From an uncultured Candidatus Saccharibacteria bacterium (GTDB lineage Bacteria > Patescibacteriota > Minisyncoccia > Phycocordibacterales > UBA918), in NCBI GenBank assembly GCA_964593375.1, contig CAZQIF010000003.1, positions 11,210 to 75,209 on the forward strand: a stretch of 64,000 nucleotides of DNA, read 5' to 3'. How positions within the stretch are numbered: the stretch's first letter is position 1; every line of letters begins with the position of its first letter. The notes below the pieces were generated by a model. That model was given only the letters and a program-made list of their open reading frames with translations, was not told the origin of the DNA and searched no databases. Shown in pieces: positions 15,736 to 46,800 of this stretch. Made by a program: the position numbers and the translations under genes.

Positions 15736-15841
15736 GACAATTACTTTGATCTCTTCTGGTACTCTACGAAGCGTTTGATTATGGCGTCTTCACAAAGCAT
15801 TAGGAAAAGCATTGTGAAGACGGACTCGGAAAATATAATCG
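15736..15841 (-). repeat. intergenic repeat family 1, copy E (hairpin element abutting the nusB-Nudix stop)
   Basis: Reverse complement reads TATATTTTCCGAGTCCGTC, stem GTCTTCACAATGC...GCTTTGTGAAGAC, then GCCATAATCAAACGCTT; collinear with copies A and D. Confidence 0.55.
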
Positions 15842-16078
15842 CTAGCGCTCATTATTTTCCGGCCACGCCTCAGCCTCAGTTCCTCGTGCGCCTCGCATCT
15901 TTCGCAATTCTAGCAATTTTCAAGTATTGCAAGATTGTTTCTACACTTAGTTTCACCTTTTTTATATTCCATAACCTATATTCATTATTCAATATCCCAT
16001 ATCCTATATTCCATATTCAATATCATATATTTTTACCTTTTCATTTTTAATTTTTAAATTTTGTGTTAGTCTAGCGCC

Positions 16079-16789
16079 ATGACCGATATGAGCGACATCG
16101 AACAATCTCTTACAAATCTCCAAAAAAAGCTTGGGGTGACCTTTGTTGACCCTCAGCATCTCCTCACGGCGATTACACACCGTTCCTATTTAAATGAGCA
16201 CCGCGAGGCAAAACAAGACCACAATGAACGTTATGAGTTTTTGGGTGACGCCGTACTTGAACTCGTGGTGACTGATTTCCTTTTTCAAAAATACCCAGAG
16301 AAACCCGAGGGTGAACTCACTGCCGTTCGTGCTGCGCTCGTGAACACTATTTCAATTTCTGAAGCCGGAGTGCGTCTTGGCATCAATGATTTCCTCCTCC
16401 TTTCAAAAGGTGAGGAGCGCGATACGGGACGGGCGCGCCAGTACATTCTCGCAAATGCCTTCGAGGCTATCATCGGAGCAATCTATCTCGATCAGGGATA
16501 CGAATCTGCAAAAAACTTTATTGGCGATGAGCTTTTCGATCTCACCGATACCATTGTTGCAAAGCGCTTGTGGCAAGATGCAAAGAGTCGCTTTCAGGAA
16601 CTTGCGCAAGAGCATACAAATATCACGCCGAGTTACGACATGATAAGTCAGGTTGGCCCCGATCATGACCGTGTCTTCACGGTTGGCGTCTTCTTAGGGA
16701 GTGAAAAAATTGGAGAAGGAAAGGGCCGTTCAAAACAAGAGGCTGAACAAGAGGCAGCCCTGAAAGCAATTGAAGCGAGAAATTGGTGA
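16079..16789 (+). CDS. rnc: ribonuclease III
   Basis: ERYEFLGDAVLELVV signature and dsRBD. Confidence 0.88.
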   Translation: MTDMSDIEQSLTNLQKKLGVTFVDPQHLLTAITHRSYLNEHREAKQDHNERYEFLGDAVLELVVTDFLFQKYPEKPEGELTAVRAALVNTISISEAGVRLGINDFLLLSKGEERDTGRARQYILANAFEAIIGAIYLDQGYESAKNFIGDELFDLTDTIVAKRLWQDAKSRFQELAQEHTNITPSYDMISQVGPDHDRVFTVGVFLGSEKIGEGKGRSKQEAEQEAALKAIEARNW

Positions 16790-16866
16790 CCAGAAATTAA
16801 GGAATGTAATGACTATAATTTCTGAGTCCGTCGACACGTGCTTTCCCTATGCTTCGTGTCGACGCC
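16790..16866 (+). repeat. intergenic repeat family 1, copy A (starts at the base after the rnc stop)
   Basis: CCAGAAATTAAGGAATGTAATGACTATAATTTCTGAGTCCGTC, then stem GTCGACACG...CGTGTCGAC, then GCCGTAGTCAAACGCTT; a partial second copy lies at 16901 to 16934. Confidence 0.6.
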
Positions 16867-16998
16867 GTAGTCAAACGCTTTGTCAGGTAATGATTAGGTG
16901 ATTTCTGAGTCCATGGCCTAGAAGTTAAAGAGCGCAAGCGTAGGCGATTTCACCAGTATAGGGCATCGATGTTTATAGACTCATGGTAAAATACAGCC

Positions 16999-17544
16999 AT
17001 GAGATTTTTTAATAATACACAAAAGCACAAAGGTTTTACGATGATAGAGGTTGTAGTCGCCGTTGCTATTATTGCTCTGCTTGCTTCAGTTGTTATTCTG
17101 AGCATTCAGGAAATTAAAAAGAAGTCTCGTGACGCACAGCGATATTCTGATATGTCTAATATAGAACTTGCCCTTCGGTTATATAAAGATAGTAACGGAG
17201 AGTATCCTACGACGAATAATGAACAAAGGTCTGTCTGCACAAATGGAACGGATCCAACAGCACGAGATATCACAGGTCCTAATGGATATATACCTAATTT
17301 GGCCCCCACGTATCTTCCGGTCCTTCCAGTTGACCCCAGTAATTGCAACGATTCAGGGTCAGTGCATGGATACTTTTACAGATCAAATGGGACAGATTAC
17401 AAATTTGCTATTGATTTTGCTGCAGAGAAAGGTTCTGAATGCGAACCTGGGAAGAAGTTTGATGACCCATACCCAGGTCGTGATGCGGGAACTGGAGAAC
17501 TCTGGTTCTGCTCAATTTTCTCACCAGGTGCGGCAAATTGGTAG
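16999..17544 (+). CDS. type IV pilin / pseudopilin (prepilin-type N-terminal methylation domain)
   Basis: Leader MRFFNNTQKHKG then FTMIEVVVAVAIIALLASVVI. Confidence 0.75.
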   Translation: MRFFNNTQKHKGFTMIEVVVAVAIIALLASVVILSIQEIKKKSRDAQRYSDMSNIELALRLYKDSNGEYPTTNNEQRSVCTNGTDPTARDITGPNGYIPNLAPTYLPVLPVDPSNCNDSGSVHGYFYRSNGTDYKFAIDFAAEKGSECEPGKKFDDPYPGRDAGTGELWFCSIFSPGAANW

Positions 17545-17555
17545 TTTTTATTTCA

Positions 17556-19853
17556 ATGTACCTTAAAGAGCTCACGATTAACGGTTTTAAGTCATTCGCC
17601 AAAAAAGGCGAGCTCGAATTTTCTACTCCCATTACCGCAATTGTAGGACCAAACGGCTCGGGTAAATCAAACGTTGCCGAGGCCTTTCGTTTTGTACTCG
17701 GCGAACAATCTATCAAGTCAATGCGTGGGAAGCGTGGCGAAGACCTCATCTTTAATGGTTCTGAAAGTGTCTCACGTTCAAATCGTGCATCGGTTTCTAT
17801 TACCCTTGAAAACAAAGAGCGGAATGGCAAGAAAGTCTTCCCCATTGATTTTGACCAAATCACTGTTGAGCGCGTAGTGCATCGCGACGGTACGAATGAA
17901 TATTTAATAAATGGTTCTGCAACGCGCCTTCGCGATGTGCAGGAACTCCTCGCGTCGGCAAATATTGGCCCTACAGGCCACCATATTATTTCGCAAGGTG
18001 AGGCAGACCGTATTCTTTCTGCAAGTCCACGTGAGCGAAGAGAAATGATTGAGGACGCACTCGGGCTCAAGGTATATCAATTCAAAAAAGCGGAGAGCGA
18101 ACGTAAGCTCGCAAAGACAAAAGAAAATATCGCGCAAGTTGAATCGCTTCGACGCGAAGTTGCGCCACATCTCAAGTTTCTTGAAAAACAGGTAAAGAAA
18201 CTCGAACGCTCAATTGAGCTCCAAAAAGAACTCACCACACTTTATGCAGAATATTTGCGTCGTGAAGATTCATACATAGCATTCCATACCGACAGACTCA
18301 CTGCGGAAAGGCAGGTTCCAGAATCAAGGCGGAAAGAACTTCTCGAACTTCTCGAATCAGCAAAACAAAAACTAGCAACGAAAGGAAAGGACGAAAAACG
18401 CTCTGAACTCGTCGCACTTGAGAAAAATATTTCACTTGTCCGCTCTAAGCGACAGGAGACAGTTCGTGCACTCGGGCAACTCGAAGGGCAGATTATTTTT
18501 CTCACGCGTCGCATCGAAGACATCAAGAAGCGCGAAGCAATGACGGTGGAGAACCCAATTCCCTTCGATGAATTTAAAAAGGCGACTGATTCAATTGAGA
18601 AGGCAGTGCAACAGGCTTCACAGCATGATGATGTTTCGGTACTCAAGCGAACACTCCGCGATATTTTAAATACACTCGGTGCGCTTCTTCATACTGCGAC
18701 CAAAATTGGGAGTCACAATGGTTCAAAGGAGGAAGAACATGAACTTAAAGAACTTGAGAAGCAAAAGGAACATCACGATACTGAACTCAAAGCGCTCGAA
18801 AAAGAAGAGCATGAGCAGGCAGAGCAGTACGACGCACTGAAGGCCTCAATCGAAGCCGAGCATTCAGAAAACCGTGAAGCTGAGCGCGAGGTGTTCAGTA
18901 TCATGAATGAACAGCGCGAGATAGAGCATAAGCTTGGTAATCTCGATAGAGAACTTGGTGGACTCGAACGCGACCGTGTGGAATTTAAAGATGAACTTCA
19001 GGAAGCCGTCTCACTCCTTGGGCGCTCCGCATCGATGTATTTTGATTACGAAATTATTGGCGAAAACGGAAAGCCACTCAGAGGGGAAGACATTGTCGGT
19101 GAAGAACGAAGCAAACAGCACGAGCGCAGACGAAGTCTTGAGAAGATGAAGATTCGTCTTGAGGAACTCGGTACTGGCTCCAATGATGACGTGCTCAAGG
19201 AATACAAAGACGTGAAAGAGCGTGATGAATTTTTGGTGCACGAAATTGAAGACCTCACCGCATCGGTCGGAAAGCTTGAGGTGCTTATTGCCGACCTCAC
19301 CAAAGAACTTAATGAGCAGTTCGTGAGTGGTATCGATAAGATTGGGGTTGAGTTTAGTAAATTCTTCACACTCATGTTTGGAGGTGGTACGGCGTCACTT
19401 TTGCGTGTAAAGCCAAAGATTCCAAAGAAGGATATTGATGCAGAACTTTTGCCCGAGGAACTCGAATCACTTGAAGTGCCCGAGGAGGAAGAAGTAGAAG
19501 AGGGGATTGAGATTGATGTGAAACTCCCGAATAAGCGCGTGCGTGGACTCGATATGCTTTCAGGCGGTGAGCGAGCGCTTACCTCAATTGCACTTATCTT
19601 TGCAATGAGTCAGGTCAACCCACCACTCTTTGTTATTCTCGATGAGACCGATGCTGCGCTCGATGAGGCGAACTCACGCCGCTACGGCGATATGATTACC
19701 GCACTTTCAGAACGCTCACAACTTATTTTAATTACGCATAACCGCGAGACCATGGGTCGCGCCGGCGTGCTTTACGGCGTCACCATGGCAGGGGACGGAG
19801 TTAGTAAGTTACTCTCCGTTAAGTTTGATGAAGCAGTTGCAGTTGCGAAGTAA
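17556..19853 (+). CDS. smc: SMC-family chromosome segregation ATPase, short form with no recognisable hinge
   Basis: Walker A GPNGSGKSN; coiled coil; C-terminal LSGGERALTSIAL signature and Walker B ILDETDAALD; rnc-smc synteny. Confidence 0.75.
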   Translation: MYLKELTINGFKSFAKKGELEFSTPITAIVGPNGSGKSNVAEAFRFVLGEQSIKSMRGKRGEDLIFNGSESVSRSNRASVSITLENKERNGKKVFPIDFDQITVERVVHRDGTNEYLINGSATRLRDVQELLASANIGPTGHHIISQGEADRILSASPRERREMIEDALGLKVYQFKKAESERKLAKTKENIAQVESLRREVAPHLKFLEKQVKKLERSIELQKELTTLYAEYLRREDSYIAFHTDRLTAERQVPESRRKELLELLESAKQKLATKGKDEKRSELVALEKNISLVRSKRQETVRALGQLEGQIIFLTRRIEDIKKREAMTVENPIPFDEFKKATDSIEKAVQQASQHDDVSVLKRTLRDILNTLGALLHTATKIGSHNGSKEEEHELKELEKQKEHHDTELKALEKEEHEQAEQYDALKASIEAEHSENREAEREVFSIMNEQREIEHKLGNLDRELGGLERDRVEFKDELQEAVSLLGRSASMYFDYEIIGENGKPLRGEDIVGEERSKQHERRRSLEKMKIRLEELGTGSNDDVLKEYKDVKERDEFLVHEIEDLTASVGKLEVLIADLTKELNEQFVSGIDKIGVEFSKFFTLMFGGGTASLLRVKPKIPKKDIDAELLPEELESLEVPEEEEVEEGIEIDVKLPNKRVRGLDMLSGGERALTSIALIFAMSQVNPPLFVILDETDAALDEANSRRYGDMITALSERSQLILITHNRETMGRAGVLYGVTMAGDGVSKLLSVKFDEAVAVAK

Positions 19854-19854
19854 C

Positions 19855-19890
19855 AAATCCCCGCGCCATAGGCGCGGGGATTTCAAATGC
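19855..19890 (+). terminator. hairpin after smc
   Basis: ATCCCCGCGCC atag GCGCGGGGAT. Confidence 0.45.
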
Positions 19891-19977
19891 TAAAAGCTAA
19901 AAGCAAATCACTAAGAGCTAACTCTTAACTCAGATTTGTGCAAGATACGCGACGTGAGAAGCGAATACGTGGAGCTT

Positions 19978-20075
19978 CGCAAGACCTTGAACAGTTTTTG
20001 TGAAAGGTGTACAGCGTCTGTAAGAGGCGAGACACTAAATGCGAGGCGTACAAATCGTACGATGAGATTTTAGTG
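19978..20075. repeat. intergenic repeat modules G1 (19978 to 20026) and H3 (20043 to 20065)
   Basis: G1 is about 90 percent identical to 25836 to 25883. The 23-mer at 20043 to 20065 is the exact reverse complement of 23162 to 23184. Confidence 0.55.
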
Positions 20076-20110
20076 ACGAAGCGCAACAAAGTAGATTGGA
20101 TAAATCTGAT

Positions 20111-22057
20111 TTAAGAGAGTATCTCAAAGTCGAGTTGTCGTTCCTCCATACTAGCTCGTTTGAGCTTGATACGCACCGCTTGCCCGAGTGAATATATTTT
20201 TCCGGTCTTCTGACCTTTGATGCGATACTTCTTTGCTTCGTGAATGAAGAAGTCGCCTTTGATACTTGAGAGACGCACCATGCCTTCAGACTTTGAATTC
20301 TTTTCTTCAACATAGAGACCCCAGTCAGTGACACCGGTGATGAGTCCATCAAATTCTTCACCAACGCGGTCGCACATAAACTCAACTTGCTTGTATTTAA
20401 TGGAATCGCGCTCGGCAGTGACTGCGGTCATTTCGCGCTCTGAGCACTGCACCGAAAGTTTTTCATACTTGGCAAGTTCTTTTCCTGAAATCACTTGACC
20501 GTCTAGGTATCGGCGGAGCATACGATGTGCCATTAAGTCGGGGTAGCGACGAATTGGCGAGGTAAAGTGTGTATAGAATTTAAACGCAAGACCAAAGTGA
20601 CCGATGTTTTTTGTCGTATAGAGCGCTTTCGCCATTGAGCGAATGGTTGCGGTTTTAATGAGATTTTCTTCGGGTGTTCCTTCAATATCTTTGAGGAGCT
20701 TGTTGATGTCGCGTGCATCAACGGTGCCCTTGTGTGTTTTGAATTCGTGACCGAGTGCGTGGAGGAAGATAGCGAGGTCCTCAATTTTTTCTGGATTCGG
20801 AACATCATGCACACGGTAGATGAACGCTGCGTCGCGATTGTTCTTCTTTGCATGTTCGTACACGTATTCCGCGACGCGGCGGTTTGCGAGGAGCATAAAG
20901 TCTTCAATCATGAGCATAGTCTCGGTGCGCACTTTGGTGTATGCACGGATTGGTTTTCCATCCTTATCGATTTCAAATTTTACTTCCGGTTGGTCAAAGG
21001 CAATTGCACCATCTCGGTATCTCTGTTCGCGAAGCTTTCGGCCAATGTTCATGAGAGTGTTGAGTTCCTCGTACATTGGTCCTTGTTTCGTATCGAGTAC
21101 TTCCTGTGCTTCTTCATAGCTGAATCGCTTGTTTGAGTGAATGATGGTTTGTCCAAACCACGAGTTCAATGTTTTTCCGTTTGTATCCATCTCAAAGACT
21201 GCCGAGAATCCGAGGCGGTCTTCATTAGGGCGAAGAGAACAGAGATCGTTACTGAGTACCTCAGGGAGCATCGGAATCACACGGTCAACGAGATAAATCG
21301 ATGTCCCACGTTCGACAGCTTCTTTGTCGATGGGGTCATTCTCACGAACGTAGTGTGAGACGTCGGCAATATGAATACCAATTTCGAAATTTCCATTTTC
21401 GAGCGTGCGAAGGGAAATGGCATCATCAAAATCTTTTGCATCGACAGGGTCGATGGTGCAGGTGGGAACATCGCGCATATCGCGACGTGTTGGGTTTTGA
21501 CCTTGCGTTGCAATGACAGCGTCTTTAAAAATTTGCTCCTTACGTGCGTACAGTTCTTGTCCCGCCTCAGCAATCTTCTCGGGAAAGTTTTCTGAAAATC
21601 CGCCGCCCCGAATAATCGCCTGCATTTCTGTTTCGTGGTCGCCGGCAGGCCCGAGTACCTCAACAATCTCACCAAGTGGTTCTGAAAGCGGGCTCTTCCA
21701 TTCGGTTATACGCGCCACGACCTTCATTCCTTCGTTAGTCTTTGTTGCGTCAGAAAGAAGTATGCGGATGTGGATTCGACGGTTGTCGGGAATGAGGCGA
21801 TAGATTCCCGCCTTCATTTCAACGTTACCAACAAACTCAGCGTTTTTTGGTTCGACAACGCGGAGCACCTTTCCTTCAATGCGCTTTCCGGGGACTTTCT
21901 TAAAAATCTCAATTTCAACGATATCGCCATCAATGGCAAAGGAGAGCGCCTCAGGTGGAATGAGAATATCTTCTTCATACCCCGGTACAGACACAAAACC
22001 CGTGCCTTTGGCGCGAATCATGATGACTCCTTGAAAAGTTGATTGTTTCTGGTTCAT
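20111..22057 (-). CDS. rnr: ribonuclease R (RNB family exoribonuclease)
   Basis: RNB domain including HFGLAFKFYTHFTSPIRRYPDLMAHR; cold-shock and S1 domains. Confidence 0.88.
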   Translation of the reverse strand: MNQKQSTFQGVIMIRAKGTGFVSVPGYEEDILIPPEALSFAIDGDIVEIEIFKKVPGKRIEGKVLRVVEPKNAEFVGNVEMKAGIYRLIPDNRRIHIRILLSDATKTNEGMKVVARITEWKSPLSEPLGEIVEVLGPAGDHETEMQAIIRGGGFSENFPEKIAEAGQELYARKEQIFKDAVIATQGQNPTRRDMRDVPTCTIDPVDAKDFDDAISLRTLENGNFEIGIHIADVSHYVRENDPIDKEAVERGTSIYLVDRVIPMLPEVLSNDLCSLRPNEDRLGFSAVFEMDTNGKTLNSWFGQTIIHSNKRFSYEEAQEVLDTKQGPMYEELNTLMNIGRKLREQRYRDGAIAFDQPEVKFEIDKDGKPIRAYTKVRTETMLMIEDFMLLANRRVAEYVYEHAKKNNRDAAFIYRVHDVPNPEKIEDLAIFLHALGHEFKTHKGTVDARDINKLLKDIEGTPEENLIKTATIRSMAKALYTTKNIGHFGLAFKFYTHFTSPIRRYPDLMAHRMLRRYLDGQVISGKELAKYEKLSVQCSEREMTAVTAERDSIKYKQVEFMCDRVGEEFDGLITGVTDWGLYVEEKNSKSEGMVRLSSIKGDFFIHEAKKYRIKGQKTGKIYSLGQAVRIKLKRASMEERQLDFEILS

Positions 22058-22617: not shown

Positions 22618-22630
22618 TTTGAATTTCAAA

Positions 22631-22758: not shown

Positions 22759-23115
22759 ATGGAATTAGACCAGCAGTTTCTCGAGCAGCTTGTAACAGCG
22801 CTTGTAGACCATCCAGAATCAGTGAAGATTAACCGAACGGTAGACGAGATGGGCGTACTCCTTACACTCGATGTACATGCTGCAGATATGGGCAAAATCA
22901 TCGGTCGTTCAGGAAACACCGCAAAGGCGATTCGTACACTGCTCCGCGTTGTTGGAATGAAGAACGAAGCTCGTGTAAATCTTAAGATTAACGAACCAGA
23001 AGGAGGAACTCGTTCAGCAGCATCAGCAGATGCAAGCTCAGATGTGACGAGTGTTGATGAGACTCCGGATGCTCCAAAATCACTGGACGAAGCTATCGAC
23101 GGTTTGCGCATATAA
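22759..23115 (+). CDS. KH-domain RNA-binding protein (YlqC-like)
   Basis: GKIIGRSGNTAKAIRTLL KH motif; conserved position after rpsP. Confidence 0.7.
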   Translation: MELDQQFLEQLVTALVDHPESVKINRTVDEMGVLLTLDVHAADMGKIIGRSGNTAKAIRTLLRVVGMKNEARVNLKINEPEGGTRSAASADASSDVTSVDETPDAPKSLDEAIDGLRI

Positions 23116-23130
23116 ATTGTACTGTCGGCG

Positions 23131-23215
23131 AATTTCTTTGTCAGGACGGCAAAAATAATTTTCATCGTACGATTTGTACGCCTCAAACTATTTCCTTGTC
23201 CTTCCTCGAACTTCG
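23131..23215 (+). repeat. intergenic repeat family 3, copy H1 (15 nt after the KH-protein stop)
   Basis: Collinear and about 70 percent identical with 33044 to 33127; contains TCATCGTACGATTTGTACGCCTC. Confidence 0.55.
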
Positions 23216-25633: not shown

Positions 25634-25835
25634 CCTCGCCATACGCTATTCGGTCTCGAATGAGTTTCGGTTGTGAGATTTTCATACGCGGAGAATAAAG
25701 AGACAGTCTTTGTCTCGAGCACACAAACGTGATGCACCAATTACAAGCCGAGTAAAAAGGGTGTACGAACTGTACGCGCACTGAGCGCGGATTTTGGCGT
25801 GAAGTTAAAGAGTGAGTTGCGAGGAATCGCAGCAA

Positions 25836-25883
25836 CGCAAGACCTTGAGCAGTTTCTGCGAAAGGTGTACAGCATCTGTAAGA
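25836..25883 (+). repeat. intergenic repeat module G2
   Basis: GCAAGACCTTGAGCAGTTTCTGCGAAAGGTGTACAGCATCTGTAAGA, about 90 percent identical to 19978 to 20026; preceded by GAAGTTAAAGAG, which is shared with 16921. Confidence 0.55.
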
Positions 25884-25891
25884 TGTAGCGA

Positions 25892-25943
25892 CTATAACTT
25901 CAGGTCTGTCACCTTTTCTTTTTCGTTAAAGAAAAGGTGACGC
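25892..25943 (+). repeat. intergenic repeat family 1, copy F
   Basis: CTATAACTTCAGGTCTGTC, then stem GTCACCTTTTCTTT...AAAGAAAAGGTGAC, then GCG. Confidence 0.55.
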
Positions 25944-26131
25944 GTGTTCCTTTTTTCTACTCACATTATTCACAAGGGTGAATGTACACGGCATACACCC
26001 ATGAGAGTTGAGGGGTATTAATAATCTGCATAGTGATTTTAGAGTTAGTTCGTCTTTTCAAAGCATTAGGAACAGCAATGAAAAGACGGCCAAGATTCTC
26101 TAATTCGCTACGCTCATAACAGAATCTAGGC

Positions 26132-29100
26132 ATGACTCACAACACACGAAAAGACAGAGAGATTTCTGTTGGCATGCTTCCAAAGAAGCACTTCCAGCAC
26201 TATCGTGATGCGCGCGTATCACTTCCTGACCTCGTCCAGCCACAGCGAGAATCATTCAAGTGGTTTGTTGAAACCGGTCTCAAAGAAGTATTCAAAGAGT
26301 TTTCACCAATTGGTGACTATTCTGAAAAGAAGTTTGAACTCGTTTTCAAGAAGTATGAACTGGGGAATCCAAAGACGACTCCTCAGTACGCAAAGGAAAA
26401 CAAGCTCACCTACGAAGCGCCACTTCGCGCGCAAGTAGTATTGCGCAACAAGACGTTTGCAGGAGAGAAAGAACAGGAAATCTTCATGGCAGACATTCCA
26501 GTCATGACTGAAAACGGAACCTTCATTGTGAACGGTGTTGAGCGCGTTATTGTGCCACAGCTCGCACGCTCATACGGAATCTTTTTCACTACAAGTGAAA
26601 CCAAGGGGCGAACCTACTTTGGTGCGAAGATAATTCCAGCGCGTGGTGCGTGGGTTGAAATTGAATCTGAAGCCGATGGTGCCATCTACGTAAAGATTGA
26701 CCGAAAGCGAAAGTTCCCGGTCTCATCACTGTTCCGTGTACTTGGTGCAAAAGATGAAAAAGCGGTCGCAGCGCTCTTCAAGGGAGTTCCATTTGCTGAG
26801 GAATTTCTTAAGGCAACATTCCTTAAAGATCCTGCAAAGACTGTTGATGACTCATACATCGAAATTTATCGTCGCCTCCGCGATGGTGACCTTGCGACCG
26901 TAGAAAACGCGCGCGAGTTTGTGAACTCAATCTTTGCTCCTGAGCGATACGACCTTTCAGAAATTGGACGACATCATTTTAACCAACGTTTCGGACTTCC
27001 TGTTGATGCGAAAGCGACTGCAGTCCGCACCGTCGGTCTAGAAGACATTGTGACGATTCTCAAAAACATCATCACGCAGAATCACACCCCCGGAGCAATT
27101 GCTGACGATATCGACCACCTCGGTTTCCGTCGTGTGCGCTACTTTGGAGAACTTCTCCAACAGCGTATCCGTGTTGGTATGACTCGTGTCAAGCGAAACG
27201 TACAAGACCGTATGTCAACGATTGAAGCTGAGACATCACTTCCAATTCAACTCGTGAACCCACGTCCACTTCAAGCAGCGATTAAGGAATTTTTCACCAC
27301 CAACCAGCTTTCACAGTTCATGCCACAGCAGAACATGCTCGCAGAACTCGAAGGTCTCCGTACGCTCTCAGCACTCGGTCCGGGTGGACTCACTCGTGAG
27401 CGCGCTGGCTTTGAGGTGCGTGACGTACACACGAGTCACTACGGCCGACTCTGTCCGATTCACACACCTGAAGGTCCAAACATTGGTCTCATTCTCCGTC
27501 TCTCAATGTACGCTCGCGTAAACCGATTCGGTATCATCGAGACACCATATGCAAAGGTGCATAAAGGAATCGTGACTGACGAGATTGTGTACCTTAATGC
27601 CCATGAAGAAGAGCACTACAACATCGCACACGCTGCGGTAGAAGTTGATGAAAAGGGAAAGATTAAGTCAGAAAACGTTGAGGCTCGCTACAATGGTGAC
27701 CCACGTGTTGTTCTCCCAAATGAAGTTGACTTCATCGACATTGCAACCAATCAGGCATTCTCTGTTGCAACCTCAATGATTCCATTCATTAACCACGACG
27801 ACGCCAACCGCGCACTCATGGGTTCAAATATGCAGAAGCAGGCTACGCCTTGTATCGTGCCTGAAGCACCACTCGTCGCAACGGGCGTTGAGGAAATGGC
27901 TGCTAGGGACACCGGACGCATGATTGTTGCGCATGAAGCAGGAGAAGTTATTGAAGCTGATGCAAAGCATGTCGTCCTCAAAGACAAAGACGGAAAGAAG
28001 CATGAATATGCACTCACGACATTCCAGCGCACCAACGACTTCTCTGCGTTCTACCACCGCACATCAGTTACGGTTGGCGATAAGGTAAAGCGTGGCGACG
28101 TACTCGCAAACACCTCTTCAACCGAAGCGGGTCAAATCGCACTTGGACAAAACGCACTCGTTGCCTTCATGAGTTGGAGCGGTGCAAACTATGAGGACGC
28201 CATCATTATTTCTGAGCGTCTCGTAAAGGATAGTAAGTTTGCAACGATTCACCTCGATGAACTCGAAGTGGCAGTTCGCGACACCAAGCTTGGGCCTGAA
28301 GTTACTACCCCAGACATTCCAAACGTTTCAGAGCAAAAGCTTCGCAACCTCGATGAAGAAGGAATCATTCGCGTTGGTGCAGAAGTGCGCCCAGGCGATA
28401 TTCTTGTCGGTAAAGTTACACCAAAGGGAGAGACACAGCTCACTCCTGAGGAACGACTTCTCCGTTCAATCTTCGGTGAGAAGGCAAAGGATGTGAAGGA
28501 CACTTCACTTCGTCTCGAAGCAGGAAAGCGCGGTCGCATTATCGGCGTGAAAGTATTCTCACGCGAGCAGGGTGACCAACTCGAATCGGGTGTCATCAAG
28601 CGCATTCACATTACCGTTGCACAGGTTCGTAACGTATCAGTGGGTGATAAGCTCGCAGGACGACACGGAAACAAGGGTGTTATCTCACGTATTCTTCCTG
28701 AGGAAGATATGCCGTACACAGAAGATGGAAAGCCGGTTGATGTGATTCTCACACCGCTCGGCGTTCCAAGCCGTATGAACCTCGGACAGATTCTTGAACT
28801 TCACCTTGGTATGGCGGCAAATACACTCGGCTACCAAGCAATCGTTCCTCCATTTGCAGGAGCATCAGAAACTGATGTGAAGGCAGAACTCGCGGCAGCA
28901 GGTTTGCCAACCGATGGAAAGATTCCACTTCGCGATGGACGAACCGGTGAAGCATTCGCACAGCGCATCTCAGTCGGGTACATGTACATTCTTAAACTTC
29001 ATCACATGGTTGAAGACAAGATTCACATGCGCTCAATTGGGCCGTACTCCCTCATTACGCAACAGCCACTCGGCGGAAAGGCACAGGTGGGAGGACAGCG

Positions 29101-33043: not shown

Positions 33044-33127
33044 CATTTCTTTGTCGCACATCACAAAATAATTCTCATCGTATATCTTTATACGCCTCGA
33101 ATTATTTTGTTTGTGCTTCTCGAACTG
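33044..33127 (+). repeat. intergenic repeat family 3, copy H2 (about 20 nt after the rpoC stop)
   Basis: Collinear with H1: ATTTCTTTGTC...AAAATAATTCTCATCGTATA...TACGCCTCGAAT...TTCTCGAACT. Confidence 0.55.
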
Positions 33128-36613: not shown

Positions 36614-36673
36614 AAACAGCCCACTTACAAATTGATTCTATCTTGGCACGACGCTTTGCGTTGGGGTTTTCGC

Positions 36674-36717
36674 GTATATCACAGCTTTGTTGTCGAACGA
36701 CAACAAAGCTGTGATAT
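36674..36717. promoter_or_regulatory. perfect 21-bp-arm palindrome (operator or hairpin candidate)
   Basis: TATATCACAGCTTTGTTGTCG aa CGACAACAAAGCTGTGATATA, 20 nt upstream of the regulator start. Confidence 0.5.
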
Positions 36718-36736
36718 ATTTAAAGTACACTTCTGT

Positions 36737-37324
36737 ATGAGTAATTTTTCTTCTAAAAAATTCAATCATATCGATTTACTCCGCAAACAATCGCGTTCAT
36801 ATCGAGTACTGCAGGAGATTTCAGCAGGCGATATGTTTGTTGGATTTCTTCTTTCTGCTCGGAGTACCAAACTTATGTACCAAGTTGCGCGACGACGCGC
36901 TCAAGAGCGATATCAAAACAAGAAAACAATTTTGGAGCTTAAGGCATCGGGATATGTGACCGAAAGGGAGGTCTCGGGTCAACCATCATTTTTCATTACC
37001 AAAGCGGGAAAACAGGCTTTGCGGGAAGTGTATCGAAAAGCGCATGCTCAGCACACAAAACCGGCCTCATGGGATGGTTTATGGCGAGTGGTTTCGTATG
37101 ATTTCCCTGAAGGTGAAAGGAGTGTTCGTAACTCTCTGCGGTATGTGCTTGAAAAAGCTCAGTTTTTGCAAATTCAAAAAAGCGTTTGGCTTTCGCCGTT
37201 TGACTCACAAGAACTTGAAAAGGTAATTGCGAGTCATACAGTGGCCAAAAATCATGTTGTCGTAATGGTTGTTCGCTCTATTTCTGAAGAAGAACGATAC
37301 AAGAAGCATTTTCGACTCAAGTAA
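36737..37324 (+). CDS. PaaX-like transcriptional regulator (start uncertain; the ORF is open back to 36632)
   Basis: C-terminal WDGLWRVVSYDFPEGERSVRNSLRYVLEKAQFLQIQKSVWLSP resembles the PaaX C-terminal WDGxW region. Low confidence because the call is by recollection only. Confidence 0.45.
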   Translation: MSNFSSKKFNHIDLLRKQSRSYRVLQEISAGDMFVGFLLSARSTKLMYQVARRRAQERYQNKKTILELKASGYVTEREVSGQPSFFITKAGKQALREVYRKAHAQHTKPASWDGLWRVVSYDFPEGERSVRNSLRYVLEKAQFLQIQKSVWLSPFDSQELEKVIASHTVAKNHVVVMVVRSISEEERYKKHFRLK

Positions 37325-37338
37325 TACCATCCACAACG

Positions 37339-37380
37339 GTATCACGCCTTTGTTGTCGTTCGACAACAAAGGCGTGATAC
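37339..37380. promoter_or_regulatory. second perfect palindrome, near-identical to 36674 to 36717
   Basis: GTATCACGCCTTTGTTGTCG tt CGACAACAAAGGCGTGATAC; differs from the first at two positions, mirrored in both arms. Confidence 0.5.
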
Positions 37381-41241: not shown

Positions 41242-41284
41242 AAGAATTAATTTGGTGTTAAAAATGTTGAGCTAATAAAATAAA

Positions 41285-41310
41285 AAACAAAAAAAAGCGT
41301 ATAACGCTTA
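41285..41310 (-). terminator. hairpin plus U-tract after the CBS gene
   Basis: Minus strand reads CACTTAAGCGTTATACGCTTTTTTTTG. Confidence 0.4.
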
Positions 41311-41336
41311 AGTGTCCCCAGAGAGATACGGAGAAC

Positions 41337-41795
41337 CTATGCAGTATCTCTGATGTTGAGGAATTTTGCAAGAATATGCTTGAGACCTCGTCGTGAGACG
41401 AATCCAATTGGGCGATCATCATGGTCAACGATTGGAATATGAGCCGTCTGATTTGCAATGGCAGTCGCAGCAATACTCATGAGACTATCATCAACATGAA
41501 TGGGTTGAATATCGACGGTCATAAAATCCGCGACAGTCTTTTCAGATGCGTTTTTGACTGCTTCCTTGAAGGCTTCTTCGGTTGAGAATTCTTCCATAAT
41601 ACTGTCGCCGTCGAGGTATTCGGGAACAATGGCATCGAGGAGATCAGATACATTTACTTCTCCGGTGAGTATACCTTCATCATTAACCACAAGGAGAGAG
41701 TTGGTCTGCTTTTTGACCATGGTAGAAATCGCATCATGAAAGGTTGCATTTTCACTGATGACGACAGCCTCTTTTGCAATATCCTTTATCTGCAT
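41337..41795 (-). CDS. tandem CBS-domain protein
   Basis: Two CBS repeats; start set at MQIKDIAK to avoid overlapping the divergent helicase gene. Confidence 0.65.
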   Translation of the reverse strand: MQIKDIAKEAVVISENATFHDAISTMVKKQTNSLLVVNDEGILTGEVNVSDLLDAIVPEYLDGDSIMEEFSTEEAFKEAVKNASEKTVADFMTVDIQPIHVDDSLMSIAATAIANQTAHIPIVDHDDRPIGFVSRRGLKHILAKFLNIRDTA

Positions 41796-41852
41796 ACCCC
41801 TTAATGATACTCCGGTCGTGGAGAAAGTAAATATCTTCTGTATAATGCCTAC

Positions 41853-44843
41853 ATGCAAAACTCACTCTTTGATGAGGCATATAAACGGCTTAATCCAGCC
41901 CAAAAAGAGGCTGTAGACACCATAGAAGGGCCAGTAATGGTCATAGCGGGGCCGGGGACAGGGAAGACGCAGATTCTCACCCTCCGCATTGCAAACATAC
42001 TCCTTAAGACGGATACACGCCCTGAGAATATTTTGGCGCTCACCTTCACCGAATCAGGCGCTCGCGCGATGCGCGAGCGCCTGGCATCCTACATTGGTGC
42101 GCCTGCATACCGTGTTCCGATATACACATTCCATGAATTTGCCGGAATCCTCATTCGTACCTACCCCGAAGCCTATGAGCGAGCGGTGGGCGGAAAGCCG
42201 ATTACTGACCTTGAGAAAATCACGCTCATTGAGTCGCTCCTTGCATCGCCTGATGTTAAGCAACTTCGCCCCCACGGAAATCACGAATTTTATGTAAAGC
42301 CAATCATGAGCGCACTCTCGCTCATGAAGCGTGAGTACATTACGCCTGACCGTTTAGCGGAAATTATTGTCGAGCAAGAAGCAGTACTTAACGAGACACC
42401 AAAGATTCATGAAAAAGGTGTACATAAAGGAAAGGTCCGTAGCGAGTACATCGACCGTGAAAAGCATCTACTCAAAAATCGTGAACTACTTTTTATCTAT
42501 CGTGCGTATGAGTCAGCGCTTCAAGGAGAAGGGCAATACGATTTTGAGGACATGATTTTTGAGACGGTGAAAGCGATGGAGGGAAGTGAGGACATGCTAC
42601 GTTCACTCCAAGAAACGTACCAGTACATTTTGGCCGATGAACACCAAGACGTGAACGGAAGTCAAAACCGCATTCTCGAACTCCTCGCGTCATTCCATGA
42701 GAACCCCAATATGTTTGTCGTAGGGGACGAAAAACAAGCAATCTATCGATTTCAGGGAGCCTCACTCGAAAACTTTTTATACTTTGAAGAAAAATTCCCG
42801 AACACCAAAACAATTGCACTCACCGCTAATTATCGTTCCGCACAGAATATTCTCGACCTTTCACATGAGCTTATTGTCGTCGATGCAGGTTCTGCTTCAG
42901 AACTTCGTGTTCCGCTTACCGCAATAAAGAAAGAGACAGGAGTCATCGAACGACGCGCGTTTAGTCATGAAGCAGTTGAACATGAGTATGTGATTAGTGC
43001 AGTAGAAAAGCTCATTGCGGATAGTACGCCACTCGAGGAAATTGCGATTATACTGCGAACAAACCGTGAGGTTGAAGAGTTTGCAACACTTCTTAGAAAG
43101 CGCGGTATTTCGGCGGAGGCTTCGGCTGATGGTGATATTCTCTATCATCCGATTACCACTTCAGTGCGTGAACTCATTGATGCAGTTATTCATCCAGAAG
43201 ACGAGCGAGCGCTCGCGGGAGTACTCATGAGTGGGTATAGTGGCATCGCGGTTCAGGATATTGTGCGCATCATGCGTGCGCGCACATACAGTCGACCACT
43301 CACTGCAATTGTTGCTGATACCGAAGGAATGCAGGAACTTGGTGTGACCGACGCTCCACGTGTGAGTCATCTTGTGGAGGTTCTAATGGAAGCACGTAAG
43401 CGTATGTCGCTTGAGGCACCACATCGCGTGCTTGAGTATATGCTCCGAGAAACAGGGCTTCTTGACCATGCAATTGCCTATGACCCGTACGATGGCGGGC
43501 GCGTGATTCGTCGACTCTACGATGAAGTTGAAGAAATGGTTCGCCACGAAGAAGTACAAACGCTCGCGGATATTGGTATGATGTTTAAGCTCCGCATTCT
43601 CCACGGATTGCCACTTAACGCACCGTACATTCGTGCCAATCGCCATGCGGTGCAGGTCATGACAGCACATAAAGCAAAAGGACTCGAGTTTCTCCATGTA
43701 TTTATTCCACACCTCACTGATTCACGGTGGGGCGGAAAAACACGCACTGAATATTTCCGTATCCCGATTACGCACCATAAGGGCGCTGAGGAGCATGACC
43801 AAAATGATGATGAGCGAAAGCTTCTCTATGTTGCACAGACGCGCGCAAAAATCGGTCTCTATATGAGTTCGAGTGAAACGAGCGCTGAGGGTCGCACGCT
43901 TCTTCCGACGCGACTTCTTGAAGATGTTGGTGCATCGACCATCGGTGAAGTTGATGTCTCACCACTTGAAAGTGCCTTTAATCCAACTGACTCTGTGGTG
44001 CACAAAGACACGCGCATGCCGATTGATGCAACGCTCCTTAAAACCGTACTTCACGAGCGTGGGCTTTCTGCAACGGCACTCAATAACTATTTGCGTGACC
44101 CGTGGAATTATTTCTTTCGCAACGTACTGCATATTCCCGAAGTACAGGAGGAGAGCGCACAGTTTGGTACTGCCCTCCATGATACGCTCCGTGCAGTGAT
44201 GCACTACAGACGTGAACATGGTGAACTTCCGAACACTACAACACTCAAGACTTTTCTTGAGCGAGAACTTAAAAAGCTTCCGATTACCCACACCGAGTAT
44301 GTGCGACACCATGAGCGTGGACTGGTTGCCCTTACGACGTACCTCGGGTATGTAGAAAACGCACTTCCTCACGAAACGAAAGAAGAATATGGTATCGAAT
44401 CAGTGCTCCAAACGGGTGATACAGAAATTCCTGAAGTGCGTCTTACGGGAAAACTCGACCGTCTCGATTTTGATACCGCAGGGCGCATAGTGCGCGTTGT
44501 AGACTACAAATCAGGGAAACCTAAGACACGTGGATACATCGAGGGAACGACAAAAGATTCAACCGGTGACTACAAGCGCCAACTCACATTTTATGCATTT
44601 ATGCTCTCACTCCAGAGTGATGAGCGACTTGTGTGTCGTGATGGCCTCCTCTCATTTGTTGAAGCGGATGAAAAGGGAAAGATTCACGAAGAAGCTTTTA
44701 CCATAACGGATGAGGAAATTGAAACACTTAAAGCGGAAGTTATTCGAATCGCCCTAGAAATCGGAAAAGGCGCGTTTTTAGACGCGCCTTGTGATCCTCT
44801 CATGTGTACCTATTGTGATTTGGTAGCACGGCTTCGAAAATAA
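41853..44843 (+). CDS. UvrD/PcrA-family helicase fused to a C-terminal RecB-like PD-(D/E)xK nuclease with a Cys cluster
   Basis: Walker A AGPGTGKT and DEHQD; C-terminal VRVVDYKSGK, QLTFYAFML and CDPLMCTYCDL. Confidence 0.8.
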   Translation: MQNSLFDEAYKRLNPAQKEAVDTIEGPVMVIAGPGTGKTQILTLRIANILLKTDTRPENILALTFTESGARAMRERLASYIGAPAYRVPIYTFHEFAGILIRTYPEAYERAVGGKPITDLEKITLIESLLASPDVKQLRPHGNHEFYVKPIMSALSLMKREYITPDRLAEIIVEQEAVLNETPKIHEKGVHKGKVRSEYIDREKHLLKNRELLFIYRAYESALQGEGQYDFEDMIFETVKAMEGSEDMLRSLQETYQYILADEHQDVNGSQNRILELLASFHENPNMFVVGDEKQAIYRFQGASLENFLYFEEKFPNTKTIALTANYRSAQNILDLSHELIVVDAGSASELRVPLTAIKKETGVIERRAFSHEAVEHEYVISAVEKLIADSTPLEEIAIILRTNREVEEFATLLRKRGISAEASADGDILYHPITTSVRELIDAVIHPEDERALAGVLMSGYSGIAVQDIVRIMRARTYSRPLTAIVADTEGMQELGVTDAPRVSHLVEVLMEARKRMSLEAPHRVLEYMLRETGLLDHAIAYDPYDGGRVIRRLYDEVEEMVRHEEVQTLADIGMMFKLRILHGLPLNAPYIRANRHAVQVMTAHKAKGLEFLHVFIPHLTDSRWGGKTRTEYFRIPITHHKGAEEHDQNDDERKLLYVAQTRAKIGLYMSSSETSAEGRTLLPTRLLEDVGASTIGEVDVSPLESAFNPTDSVVHKDTRMPIDATLLKTVLHERGLSATALNNYLRDPWNYFFRNVLHIPEVQEESAQFGTALHDTLRAVMHYRREHGELPNTTTLKTFLERELKKLPITHTEYVRHHERGLVALTTYLGYVENALPHETKEEYGIESVLQTGDTEIPEVRLTGKLDRLDFDTAGRIVRVVDYKSGKPKTRGYIEGTTKDSTGDYKRQLTFYAFMLSLQSDERLVCRDGLLSFVEADEKGKIHEEAFTITDEEIETLKAEVIRIALEIGKGAFLDAPCDPLMCTYCDLVARLRK

Positions 44844-44850
44844 TCAGAAA

Positions 44851-45624
44851 TTATTTTATTGCATTATTAATGATTTGCTTTACCGTTTCGTAGGGCTGGG
44901 CTCCATTTATCGGCACTCGTTCATTTCCTACAATGAGATATGAGAACGGCGTTCCTTGCGCACCTGCTGCTGTCGCTGCGGCAATGTCCGACTGAATTTT
45001 TTCAGCATACTTATCGCTATTGAGGCAGAGCTCGAATTTGCCCTTATCGACACCTGCGGTTGTTGCAAACTCTGAGAGACGAGTTACGTTTGTTGGTTCA
45101 ACACTTTTGAGTGAACCGTTTGCATCGTACTCGACTTTCCGTGAGGCATTGAGAGCATCGAGGAATTTCCAAAAGGATTCATTTCCGCCAAGTTCACTCA
45201 CACACTCAGATGCCATGGCGATTTTAGGGGCGTCTGGGTGAAGTTGTACAATCGGGAATTGACGAAAAACCCACGCAACTTTTCCATCAGAACCAAAATC
45301 AGCCATAATCTTATTCATGGTGTCATGAAAGAGGCGACAGAATGGACAATCAATATCTGAATACTCAACAATCATGATTGGTGCGTTTGGATTGCCACGG
45401 ATGTGATCAGCTTCGGTAACGGGTGCAACATCAACCTCTGGAGTAACTTGTTGTGCAGGGTCATTTCCTGTTCCGCCAACTTTCACCACATCTTTTGATG
45501 TTTGTTGTACGCCACTCATGTAGATTGCTCCCGCGATAAGCGCAGCGGCAATCACGATGGCGACTGGAATTCCGAGATTGTTTGCTCTCGATGCAACTGC
45601 TGATGTGTTTTGTGTTTCTTCCAT
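44851..45624 (-). CDS. DsbA-like thiol:disulfide oxidoreductase (membrane-anchored thioredoxin fold)
   Basis: N-terminal TM; CPFC active site. Confidence 0.6.
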   Translation of the reverse strand: MEETQNTSAVASRANNLGIPVAIVIAAALIAGAIYMSGVQQTSKDVVKVGGTGNDPAQQVTPEVDVAPVTEADHIRGNPNAPIMIVEYSDIDCPFCRLFHDTMNKIMADFGSDGKVAWVFRQFPIVQLHPDAPKIAMASECVSELGGNESFWKFLDALNASRKVEYDANGSLKSVEPTNVTRLSEFATTAGVDKGKFELCLNSDKYAEKIQSDIAAATAAGAQGTPFSYLIVGNERVPINGAQPYETVKQIINNAIK

Positions 45625-45687
45625 GCTTGCTTAGAATGCTTAGATTTTATTAATGATTGTAATGAATTTAGAAAATCTTAGCTGTGG

Positions 45688-45772
45688 CCAGAAATTAAGG
45701 AATGAAATGACTATAATTTCTGAGTCTGTCGATTTTTCTTCTTCATTGAAGAAAAATCGACCATACCCTTTC
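45688..45772 (+). repeat. intergenic repeat family 1, copy C
   Basis: CCAGAAATTAAGGAATGAAATGACTATAATTTCTGAGTCTGTC, then stem GTCGATTTTTCTTC...GAAGAAAAATCGAC; 47 of 50 nt identical to copy A in the 5' part. Confidence 0.6.
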
Positions 45773-45892
45773 CATAATGTTTTCTGGTGACGAACGAACT
45801 CTAGTTTCACTACTTTCGGTCTTTACTTGTAAACTATTTTGTATCGACAAGTATACCATACACACTCATTTTGACATGCTATACTGCTTGGG

Positions 45893-46702
45893 ATGGATAT
45901 ACTTTCTGCCATTATTTTGGGTTGTGTTCAGGGAATCACTGAATTTCTGCCCGTTTCCTCAACCGGTCATCTTGTGCTCATGCATGAGGTGCTTGGTATA
46001 GAAGACGCGAACTCACTCGCTTTTGATGCACTCCTACACCTTGCAACCGCAGGTGCAGTGATTGTCTATTATTTTGATGAAATACTGATACTGGTACAAA
46101 CGGTCCTCCGTAAGCTCGGCAGACTTCCGGTGAATGAAAAAGATTTGACTATCGTTAAAGCAATCGCTGCGGCTACTGTTCCAGCGGTCATTCTCGGATT
46201 ACTGCTTGAGTCATATATGGAAACGGTCTTTCGTCATCCAATACTCGTAGCAATCGTGCTTGTGATTGGTTCAGTATTCTTCATGTACGTTGAGTATCAA
46301 TACCAGAACACTCCTGCTGGTCGCGATATCGATGCGGGGATGGGACTCAAAATTGGTTTCTTTCAGTCACTCGCGCTCATTCCTGGATTTTCTCGCTCGG
46401 GTGCTTCAATTGCGGGAGGTATGCTCCTTGGACTCACGCGCGCGGAAGCGGCGCGTTTTGCATTCCTTATTTCGGTTCCAGTAATTCTCGGGGCAGGGGT
46501 TAAGAAACTTATTGAACTCATTTCATCCGATGTTGCAGTTGCGTGGCTTCCCATTAGCATGGGAGCACTCTGCGCTTTTATCGTAGGACTTCTCGCAATT
46601 CACTTTATGATTTCGTTCGTGAAGAAATATACTTTGTGGCCGTTTATTTGGTATAGGATTATTCTTGCATCCTTTATCATATTCGTATTCATTTTCAACT
46701 GA
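45893..46702 (+). CDS. uppP: undecaprenyl-diphosphatase
   Basis: BacA/UppP motifs (GITEFLPVSSTGHL, SRSGASI). Confidence 0.88.
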   Translation: MDILSAIILGCVQGITEFLPVSSTGHLVLMHEVLGIEDANSLAFDALLHLATAGAVIVYYFDEILILVQTVLRKLGRLPVNEKDLTIVKAIAAATVPAVILGLLLESYMETVFRHPILVAIVLVIGSVFFMYVEYQYQNTPAGRDIDAGMGLKIGFFQSLALIPGFSRSGASIAGGMLLGLTRAEAARFAFLISVPVILGAGVKKLIELISSDVAVAWLPISMGALCAFIVGLLAIHFMISFVKKYTLWPFIWYRIILASFIIFVFIFN

Positions 46703-46727
46703 CCCGAAAATAATGAGCCGAAGGCGA

Positions 46728-46800
46728 CTATATTTTCGGAGTCCGTCGACACAATGCTTTTCGTAATGCTTTGTGTCGACGCCCTACTCAAACATCCGAT
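46728..46800 (+). repeat. intergenic repeat family 1, copy D (25 nt after the uppP stop)
   Basis: CTATATTTTCGGAGTCCGTC, then stem GTCGACACAATGC...GCTTTGTGTCGAC, then GCCCTACTCAAACA. Confidence 0.55.

Follow-up and report, generated by a model that had tools for sequence, protein, structure and literature searches.

Several families of dispersed, hairpin-forming repeats have been described from bacterial genomes. Repetitive extragenic palindromes (REPs), which also occur as the doublets of bacterial interspersed mosaic elements (BIMEs), stabilise the mRNA upstream of them and, where they lie near stop codons, may affect translation. The BOX elements of Streptococcus pneumoniae are assembled from boxA, boxB and boxC modules and have no transposase of their own, and the Correia hairpins of Neisseria are substrates of RNase III. 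Here we report on a repeat of ~90 nt that occurs in a 64,000-nt stretch of contig CAZQIF010000003.1 (GenBank assembly GCA_964593375.1), hereafter the window, and in related genomes. It has a two-hairpin fold, is spread over multiple genomes, lies mostly behind genes in sense orientation, and is gained, lost and rearranged between relatives; each unit joins a near-fixed first hairpin (P1) to an exchangeable second hairpin (P2). The repeat behaves like a REP, BIME or BOX but belongs to none of them, and the family is new to Rfam 15 and to the literature searched. We consider it, with a probability of roughly 0.55, a modular non-coding hairpin repeat of the REP/BIME or BOX kind that turns over at the DNA level, is confined to one clade and is probably transcribed as a stem-loop of the 3' untranslated region (3'-UTR).

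Copies in the window are designated by letters (A-F) and loci outside it by L-numbers (e.g., L084). A covariance model built for the repeat (R1), run on the window without filters, retrieves six copies, all of them intergenic, of which A, C, D and E are full (78-92 bits) and F and B diverged; a 20-nt motif of the repeat matches the window four times with at most three mismatches, against 0.03 matches expected from shuffled sequences. The unit begins at its 5' end with RTG, followed by the P1 hairpin, which carries a small apical stem; a linker of one base separates P1 from the P2 hairpin, and a loose tail comes last. In the consensus fold of 40 copies, obtained with RNAalifold from a MAFFT alignment, both hairpins are present and 10 of the 23 base pairs are compensated; P1 comprises 12 bp, one bulged A and the small apical stem, an irregular helix of ~18-20 bp in which GRCC-N-GAAAWTA pairs with TAWTTTC-N'-G(A)GTC, with N covarying with N' and W with W. 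The motif CTATAWTTTCYGAGTC, which the original prediction took for a conserved single-stranded element, is actually the 3' strand of P1, and changes at its W and Y positions are matched by changes in the upstream GRCCNGAAAWTA, with which it pairs. This 5' strand lies inside what had been described as a 23-nt extension special to copies A and C but is present in all full copies, with an AAAATA variant in D and E.

That the pairing itself is preserved, as predicted for a dispersed structured repeat, was borne out by the 80 R1 hits. Standard pairs occupy 98.7% of the paired cells, compared with 79.7% after column shuffling and 36-52% when the partners are slid by one to three columns, and 14 of the 23 pairs have changes on both sides; the 80-copy alignment was fitted to R1, and the independent MAFFT/RNAalifold alignment yields the same pairs. 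Every copy in the window folds into P1 and P2, or P1' and P2 in copy B, with z-scores of -4.8 to -7.0. P1' is a variant (GGCC-U-AGAAGUUA / UAACUUCUG-GUC) that keeps the helix and the bulge, with the bulge on the other strand. By energy the opposite strand of the window copies folds about equally well, but one P1 position, A-U in 33 copies and G-U in 44, pairs on the given strand only. Conservation is very uneven: mean pairwise identity between loci is 80% for P1 plus linker, 41% for P2 and 32% for the tail. The invariant core is TTTCNGAGTCYGTC, and columns 37-53 of P1 are mostly 95-100% conserved. P2, laid out as GTC-NNN-inner stem/loop-N'N'N'-GAC, comes in a few types in which only the GTC/GAC clamp, recognised from the start as the closing pairs of the stem, is constant. 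The three base pairs beside the clamp take 34 triplet values in 80 copies and are unpaired in only 7, 4 and 0 of 79; the four positions that follow take essentially two states, AAAT and TTTT, each in 29 copies. The paired substitutions first seen between copies D and E (GTC-GAC...GTC-GAC vs. GTC-TTC...GAA-GAC) hold, and copies A, D and E do have the tail GCCNTANTCAAAC in common.

Some more specific structural identities were considered and rejected. A pseudoknot of the tail (GAYUA-UARUC) has two suggestive compensations (copy E and L026), but only 65% of its cells pair in 16 copies. The apical stem is no K-turn, its tandem G-A pairs being replaced by Watson-Crick pairs in many copies, and, by reading of the sequence, CUGAGUC does not fit the CUGANGA...GAAA core of a hammerhead or another ribozyme core. 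A promoter role for the TATAAT in P1 was also discarded by reading: it has neither a consistent -35 element nor a TG extension, and it is TATATT in half of the copies.

All five copies on which the original prediction was built are present at or near the places it gave. Copy A lies after rnc on the plus strand, at 16786-16880 with its tail (R1 match 16786-16876, 91.5 bits), with P1 at 16788-16828, P2 at 16829-16864 and the tail GCCGTAGTCAAACGC; its minimum free energy (MFE) is -31.3 kcal/mol (z -4.8). Its TGA (16787-16789) is the stop codon of rnc, the end of the open reading frame (ORF) overlapping the element by 4 nt. Likewise, the TGA (46700-46702) of copy D (46699-46793, plus strand, 78.4 bits; P1 46701-46743, P2 46744-46781; z -7.0) is the stop codon of uppP. 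The claim that the elements sit right after stop codons thus holds for A and D and fails for C, E and F. Copy C (45684-45774, plus strand, 87.3 bits; P1 45686-45726, P2 45728-45761; z -6.6) lies between the divergent genes of a DsbA-like protein (minus strand) and uppP (plus strand), fused at its 5' side to a separate plus-strand hairpin module, GCTTAGATTTT...AAAATCTTAGC, at 45636-45683. Copy E (15773-15866, minus strand, 85 bits; P1 15864-15823, P2 15822-15785; z -5.3) is antisense to both of its neighbours, nusB-Nudix and rnc. Copy F (26039-26133, minus strand, 39.8 bits; P1 26131-26089, P2 26088-26051; z -5.5), which was found by repeat finding, is diverged, resembles L029, and lies directly upstream of rpoB and antisense to it.

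Copy B, convergent with F at a distance of 97 nt and of a different subtype, is a genuine copy, although its predicted extent (25892-25943) covered only part of it. Its true span on the plus strand is ~25796-25942 (P1' 25796-25906, P2 25907-25942), and its first stem, of the P1' type (GAAGTTA/TAACTTC), is interrupted by a 72-nt repeat nested in it; this repeat belongs to a second family, here called family 2, occupies 25812-25883 (plus strand) within the apical loop and itself forms three small hairpins. R1 catches only the 3' part of copy B (25888-25954, plus strand, 28.2 bits); in the complete fold P1' closes around the three small hairpins and is followed by P2 (MFE -63.1 kcal/mol, z -6.1). 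The nested repeat is 81% identical to a solo copy of family 2 at 19954-20025 (plus strand), behind the SMC gene and the canonical terminator of that gene. Family 2 (~72 nt) has the form GTGAG-hairpin-CGCAAGACC-TTGAGCAGTTTCTGCGAAAGGTGTAC-hairpin-CTGTAAGA and also occurs in L010, L060, L069, L088 and L092. It goes into or beside the first hairpin of the main family, lying inside the P1 apical loop in L060, as in copy B, and abutting the 5' end in L010, where it can supply a TGG-TGA gene end. In L092 (2329-2590) a tRNA-Ala gene lies between two family-2 repeats, and a duplicate of 19-23 nt of its 3' end stands behind the second repeat, indicating local duplication and partial deletion.

The position of the repeat relative to genes was assessed for 60 copies with a simple longest-ORF gene call. 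The gene 5' of the element has the same orientation in 41 copies and the opposite one in 19 (32%), and between co-directional genes 28 copies are in sense and 7 in antisense. In such co-directional contexts most copies begin a few tens of nt past the upstream stop codon and most lie 100-300 nt before the next start. In 15 of the 60 copies, A and D included, the TGA of the element (positions 2-4, GTGACC) is precisely where the upstream ORF ends, and none of the 60 copies has an ORF ending at the TAA that stands in another frame (positions 13-15). By their scores, antisense copies are no less intact than those in sense (E, 85 bits; L070, 89 bits; L037, 86.5 bits). The neighbouring genes are functionally diverse, a pilin gene following 6 of 80 copies, and clustering of the neighbourhoods of 43 loci revealed no recurrent protein family beside the copies other than housekeeping families. 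With 32% of the upstream genes opposed and neighbours this diverse, the 60 copies do not show the fixed orientation or position relative to a regulated gene that characterises cis-regulatory elements. Neither does the repeat resemble an intrinsic terminator: P2 is followed by GCC, GAA or CAT and not by a T run, and many P2 stems are rich in A+T. Canonical terminators of a hairpin and a T run are present elsewhere in the window, so that the repeats are not needed for this purpose.

To determine the range of the family, the core pattern was scanned in one genome per species (596 Gb). The scan returned 83 loci, with ~69 chance matches expected; ~45 of the 83 come from a handful of metagenome-assembled genomes (MAGs) of the candidate phyla radiation (CPR), with several loci per genome, and only there are the flanks conserved. 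R1 gave 71 hits in the loci from the genome collection and 26 in 22 metagenome contigs, so that the copies extend beyond the window, as the original prediction had anticipated, and occur in dozens of related genomes. On the loci from non-CPR genomes R1 gave no hits, and the motif matches there are at about the chance level; a phage origin was dismissed, as both viral contigs with a core-motif match fail R1. Density is uneven, a complete 1.03-Mb genome having just two matches to the strict pattern. Rfam 15 yielded nothing at gathering score in the 64-kb window and, at E-values up to 10 around the copies, only chance-level matches (all E ≥0.02 and all under their own gathering scores); a full-text literature search turned up no account of repeats like these from CPR bacteria.

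The host appears to be related to the Kaiserbacteria. The window encodes a sortase, DnaE, RNase HII, L32, a NusB-Nudix protein, RNase III, a pilin and SMC, and further RNase R, TrmD, RpoB/C, DnaG and a sigma-70 factor. Close homologues of its RNase III are 75-86% identical, those with a name belonging to Kaiserbacteria or Pacebacteria, and the gene order around rnc is conserved in relatives. Some of the MAGs with copies bear the label 'uncultured Candidatus Saccharibacteria'. In one such MAG the L11 protein is 82-85% identical to proteins of Kaiserbacteria, Pacebacteria or Parcubacteria, with no Saccharibacteria among its named homologues, and another MAG with this label has 72-75% nucleotide identity to the window across two glycoside-hydrolase genes. 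The labels of L013, L018, L030, L045 and other loci of the CAZ*/CAY* assemblies therefore look erroneous. Since the L11 and glycoside-hydrolase comparisons contradict the Saccharibacteria labels, a spread over several CPR phyla is not upheld; judged from these comparisons, the range of the family appears to be one Kaiserbacteria-like clade of the Paceibacteria (CPR/Patescibacteria).

Comparison of orthologous spacers within this clade reveals gain, loss and rearrangement of copies. The spacer between rnc and the pilin gene is polymorphic for presence and absence, as is expected of miniature inverted-repeat transposable elements (MITEs): it reads AATTGG-TGACCAGAAA... with a full copy in the window, AATTGG-TGACCTATGAGTC... 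with only the outer P1 bases (GTGACCTATGAGTC) in L084, and AATTGG-AGTTAG without an element in L086, where the protein is one residue longer. Behind the SMC gene the window has a family-2 repeat, L086 two copies of the main family and L084 a weak copy. The nusB-rnc spacer contains copy E in the window and in L084 and L086 another hairpin family, AAATATTTCTCATCGTATA .. TATACGCCTCGA.ATATTT, which also occurs in the window at 33063-33110 (L084 9840-9900; L086 8500-8545). Copy C together with its 48-nt module (45636-45764, 129 nt) is 88-90% identical to L037 and L070, where the neighbouring genes are unrelated. Decayed fragments follow copy A on the plus strand, namely a lone 3' half of P1, TTTCTGAGTCC, at 16902-16912 and a lone 5' half of P1', GGCCTAGAAGTTAAAGAGCGCAAGCG, at 16915-16940; the two modules that are fragmentary here are intact and adjacent in L025 (1156-1235). 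Copies occur singly or in direct tandem (L032, L086, L010), and in L032 a unit has been duplicated together with its flank.

At seven sites the sequence before the element is ...TCGTCTAAYGGT, which represents a tRNA-Gln or tRNA-Glu from its 5' end to the D-loop; an intact tRNA, either the same one or a paralogue, lies 35-150 nt downstream at each of them. The 5' fragment ends where the repeat starts in L025 (1134-1562), L036 (2880-3182), L073 (5600-5813), L075 (7745-7958), L089 (790-1004) and L108 (701-925); in L025 two of these fragments follow one another, and in L036 and L108 remnants of the T-arm and acceptor stem of the broken tRNA are retained. As these two loci keep 3' remnants, we interpret the tRNA sites as places where the element went into a redundant paralogue or duplicate, and not as long target duplications; for the same reason, and because L092 represents a local duplication, the 20-46-nt repeats at tRNA sites were rejected as target duplications. 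A tRNA-derived element was also rejected: the window contains no tRNA (ARAGORN), and the tRNA-like 5' flanks are fragments of tRNA-Gln/Glu beside, not within, the element. The upstream sequence AAATATGGTA(T/A)GGTA is common to three of the loci (L075, L036 and L089), which are on this ground orthologous, yet they have three different P2 types, so that P2 seems to have been exchanged between copies over time. Direct repeats of at least 8 nt do not flank 51 of the 60 copies, and the long ones are tRNA 5' parts or tandem duplications; the 3' end of the element is not sharply defined, which places target duplications of 2-4 nt beyond judgement.

How does this repeat compare with those described before? 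With REPs and BIMEs it shares that it is extragenic, present in many copies, hairpin-forming and commonly downstream of genes, mostly just past stop codons in the transcribed orientation, that it has a strand-specific wobble and that it forms mosaics with other small modules; its effects at the RNA level are probably similar. However, a REP is a single imperfect palindrome of 20-40 nt with a GTAG-type foot and frequently forms inverted doublets (REPINs/BIMEs), whereas the unit described here has ~90 nt and two unlike hairpins, a constant P1 joined to exchangeable P2 types, the core given above and no GTAG foot or inverted doublets. The REP-associated tyrosine transposase (RAYT) is a Y1 HUH enzyme whose gene REPs typically flank; none was seen in the loci retrieved from other genomes or in the window, of whose 48 ORFs 36 were assessed by Pfam and 12 named from sequence or from Pfam tables of syntenic genes in related loci (the whole genome was not searched). 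For the window this is in line with the earlier statement that no RAYT/IS200-like transposase is present there. The BOX elements resemble the repeat in combining conserved and variable modules in various ways, in their stable predicted folds, in their intergenic position and in lacking a transposase of their own; they differ in that there is no sequence similarity, in that the number of boxB modules varies there and the type of the second hairpin is swapped here, and in that they belong to another phylum, the genomes considered here being much smaller.

The Correia elements of Neisseria (NEMIS/CREE) and the enterobacterial repetitive intergenic consensus (ERIC) or intergenic repeat units (IRU) are elements of ~100-150 nt that are co-transcribed with genes, as our repeat probably is, and, like it, fold into long irregular hairpins. 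They are true MITEs, however, with TA target duplications and with inverted repeats at the two ends of the element; neither feature was seen in our repeat. The inverted repeats of our family are internal to the hairpins, the 5' RTGRCC having no 3' complement, and no autonomous insertion sequence with matching ends was seen in ~590 kb of loci. The label REP/MITE-like is thus appropriate insofar as this is a dispersed, structured, non-coding family, but the single short palindrome, GTAG foot and inverted doublets of REPs proper and the terminal inverted repeats and target duplications of MITEs were not found. With the palindrome-associated transposable elements (PATEs) derived from IS200/IS605, the repeat would share the importance of one folded strand, and it shares the lack of a target duplication and a bias in orientation. 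It differs from them in that its left and right hairpins are unrelated, its P2 is too variable for a transposase-binding site, its 5' flank has no fixed target tetranucleotide beyond its own RTG and no Y1 transposase was found. The TIGR-Tas and CRISPR systems have arrays; here we have dispersed single copies without spacers or an effector gene.

The reading that we favour, that of a modular hairpin repeat turning over as DNA, would work as follows. Copies would be gained, lost and rearranged by insertion, local duplication, recombination or gene conversion between copies, and one strand of the repeat probably folds as single-stranded DNA or RNA. Insertions would persist where they are harmless, i.e., in intergenic DNA, in redundant tRNA copies and at the last codon of a gene, the latter because the element supplies an immediate TGA. 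Where co-transcribed with the upstream gene, the unit would form a stable double stem-loop in the 3'-UTR, which may obstruct 3'-5' exonucleases, for instance RNase R, whose gene lies close by at 20111-22057, while the 18-20-bp helix of P1 may, in addition or instead, be a substrate of RNase III, encoded at 16079-16789. These RNA-level roles would most plausibly resemble those of E. coli REPs, ERIC and Correia elements. Purifying selection would leave a pattern like the observed sense bias and position at stop codons. A population of repeats is preferred over a fixed regulatory motif because of the mosaics, the nested and fragmentary copies and the site polymorphism, and because of the antisense copies, the damaged redundant tRNAs and the lack of a link with gene function.

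Several observations weigh against this reading. Neither the Pfam scan of the window (36 of 48 ORFs), which gave no transposase domain, nor the 43 clustered neighbourhoods, with no recurrent protein family, provided a candidate partner. Terminal inverted repeats of the whole unit are absent, as are target duplications of at least 8 nt outside the tRNA and tandem cases, and therefore no known transposition chemistry is implicated. A recent insertion at the strain level was not caught, L086 being identical to L087 and L084 to L085 at these sites. P1 is nearly invariant across many genomes, even though their RNase III proteins share only 75-86% identity, and twelve orthologous copies, all with the flank CGGAGCGAT, occupy a single locus, both of which could equally mean that the host selects for a functional signal. 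Selection at the RNA level may underlie the 28:7 sense bias, but so may a replication-strand bias of insertion, and the proposed exonuclease-barrier and RNase III roles are drawn purely from analogy.

The main alternative, suggested by these points, a cis-acting RNA signal at gene ends that is encoded and selected by the host, acts in 3'-end formation, processing, stability or translation termination, and is inherited mainly vertically without being mobile, is possible, though we regard it as doubtful. Besides the near-invariance of P1 and the orthologous copies, it would account for the sense bias, for the use of the element TGA, and never of the out-of-frame TAA, as a stop codon, and for the A-U/G-U position that pairs on one strand only. 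However, it fits poorly with the 19 of 60 upstream genes on the opposite strand and the intact antisense copies (E, L070, L037), with copy C in a divergent promoter region, with relatives that manage without a copy behind rnc, with copies that interrupt tRNA genes, with the functionally unrelated flanking genes and with the ordinary hairpin and T-run terminators in the genome. The two readings are compatible, since domesticated repeats are common. Rather unlikely, in our opinion, is a third reading in which P1 is the recognition module of an undescribed, clade-specific trans-acting machine and P2 its cassette, which would make the repeat either a new mobile element or a punctuation system for gene ends. 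The mobile variant would be neither DDE nor HUH and could involve, e.g., RNA- or single-stranded-DNA-templated insertion at ...GGT/stop-codon sites and tRNA D-loops; the punctuation variant would supply stop codons and processing signals to streamlined genomes. The hypervariable but compensated 3-bp box, the exclusive use of TGA as a stop and the D-loop junction shared by seven loci point beyond a decaying MITE.

It is very improbable that the repeat acts as a DNA-level site, double-stranded or cruciform, such as a DNA-uptake signal for competence or pili, or a site for a nucleoid protein, gyrase or recombination. The core TTTCNGAGTCYGTC is indeed invariant irrespective of the orientation of transcription, both strands fold about equally well and several copies have a type IV pilin gene in their vicinity; nevertheless, a pilin gene follows only 6 of 80, the compensatory changes keep intrastrand pairing and not sequence, and the A-U/G-U position is strand-specific. 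With ~1 copy per 10 kb the repeat is also far sparser than known uptake sequences: the DNA uptake sequences of Neisseria and the uptake signal sequences of Haemophilus are far denser than this. We attach practically no weight to a small protein-coding or leader-peptide unit, as implied by the Shine-Dalgarno-like AAGGA and the ATG that the original prediction read as opening the frame MTIISESVD, which the alignment already refutes. Although AAGGAATGNAATGAC is present in copies A and C, the mini-ORF is confined to a GGAATG.AATGAC subtype: the ATG is absent from D, E and all but 5 of the 76 other aligned copies, the rest having GCGAC, GCGAT or CCCC. Moreover, the apical loop differs in length by 1-4 nt, which shifts the frame, and the variation tracks base pairing, not codons. 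Hardly any more credible is the idea that the units are the guide RNAs of an RNA-guided system, in the manner of TIGR-Tas stem-loop arrays or CRISPR-like repeats. TIGR systems are known from Parcubacteria (PMC12045711), and the invariant core contains a box-D-like CUGA and the apical stem tandem G-A/A-G mismatches, but the copies are dispersed and not arrayed, have neither variable spacers of 8-12 nt nor a box C, and freely swap the G-A pairs for Watson-Crick pairs (GGGGC/GCCCC, TAAGC/GCTTA), and no gene for a Nop-domain protein or nuclease was found nearby, either by Pfam in the window or by neighbourhood clustering.

At least four other hairpin families accompany the main repeat. Besides family 2 and the family found between nusB and rnc in L084 and L086 in place of copy E, a further repeat occurs at 47903-48030 and 23107-23152; it includes an inverted pair of 46 nt at the hisS 3' end and recurs in a second genome of the clade (L016, 1724-1805). 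Two near-identical perfect palindromes of 40-44 nt, TATCACAGCTTTGTTGTCG/CGACAACAAAGCTGTGATA, at 36675-36718 and 37339-37380 bracket a PaaX-like ORF (36632-37324) and look like paired operator sites. Among the genes of the window, the ORF at 2191-6435 (1414 aa) has 240-nt (80-aa) tandem repeats and 15-nt repeats rich in Gly, Ser and Asp, without a Pfam match; because it is located downstream of a sortase gene, it probably encodes a sortase-anchored surface protein. The gene at 14839-15735 encodes NusB fused to a Nudix hydrolase domain, a fusion that is kept in L084 and L086.

The genomes of CPR/Patescibacteria are among the smallest and most streamlined, and still the window carries about one structured repeat of 90 nt per 10 kb. 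The repeat explains assembly breaks and mis-called gene ends, caused by repeat-supplied stop codons and broken tRNA copies, and its covariance model is a specific marker for the clade. If the repeat is selfish, mobile non-coding DNA would persist under extreme genome reduction, which would point to a mobilising enzyme; if it has been co-opted, it would represent a signal for gene ends throughout a clade in which RNA biology has received practically no study.

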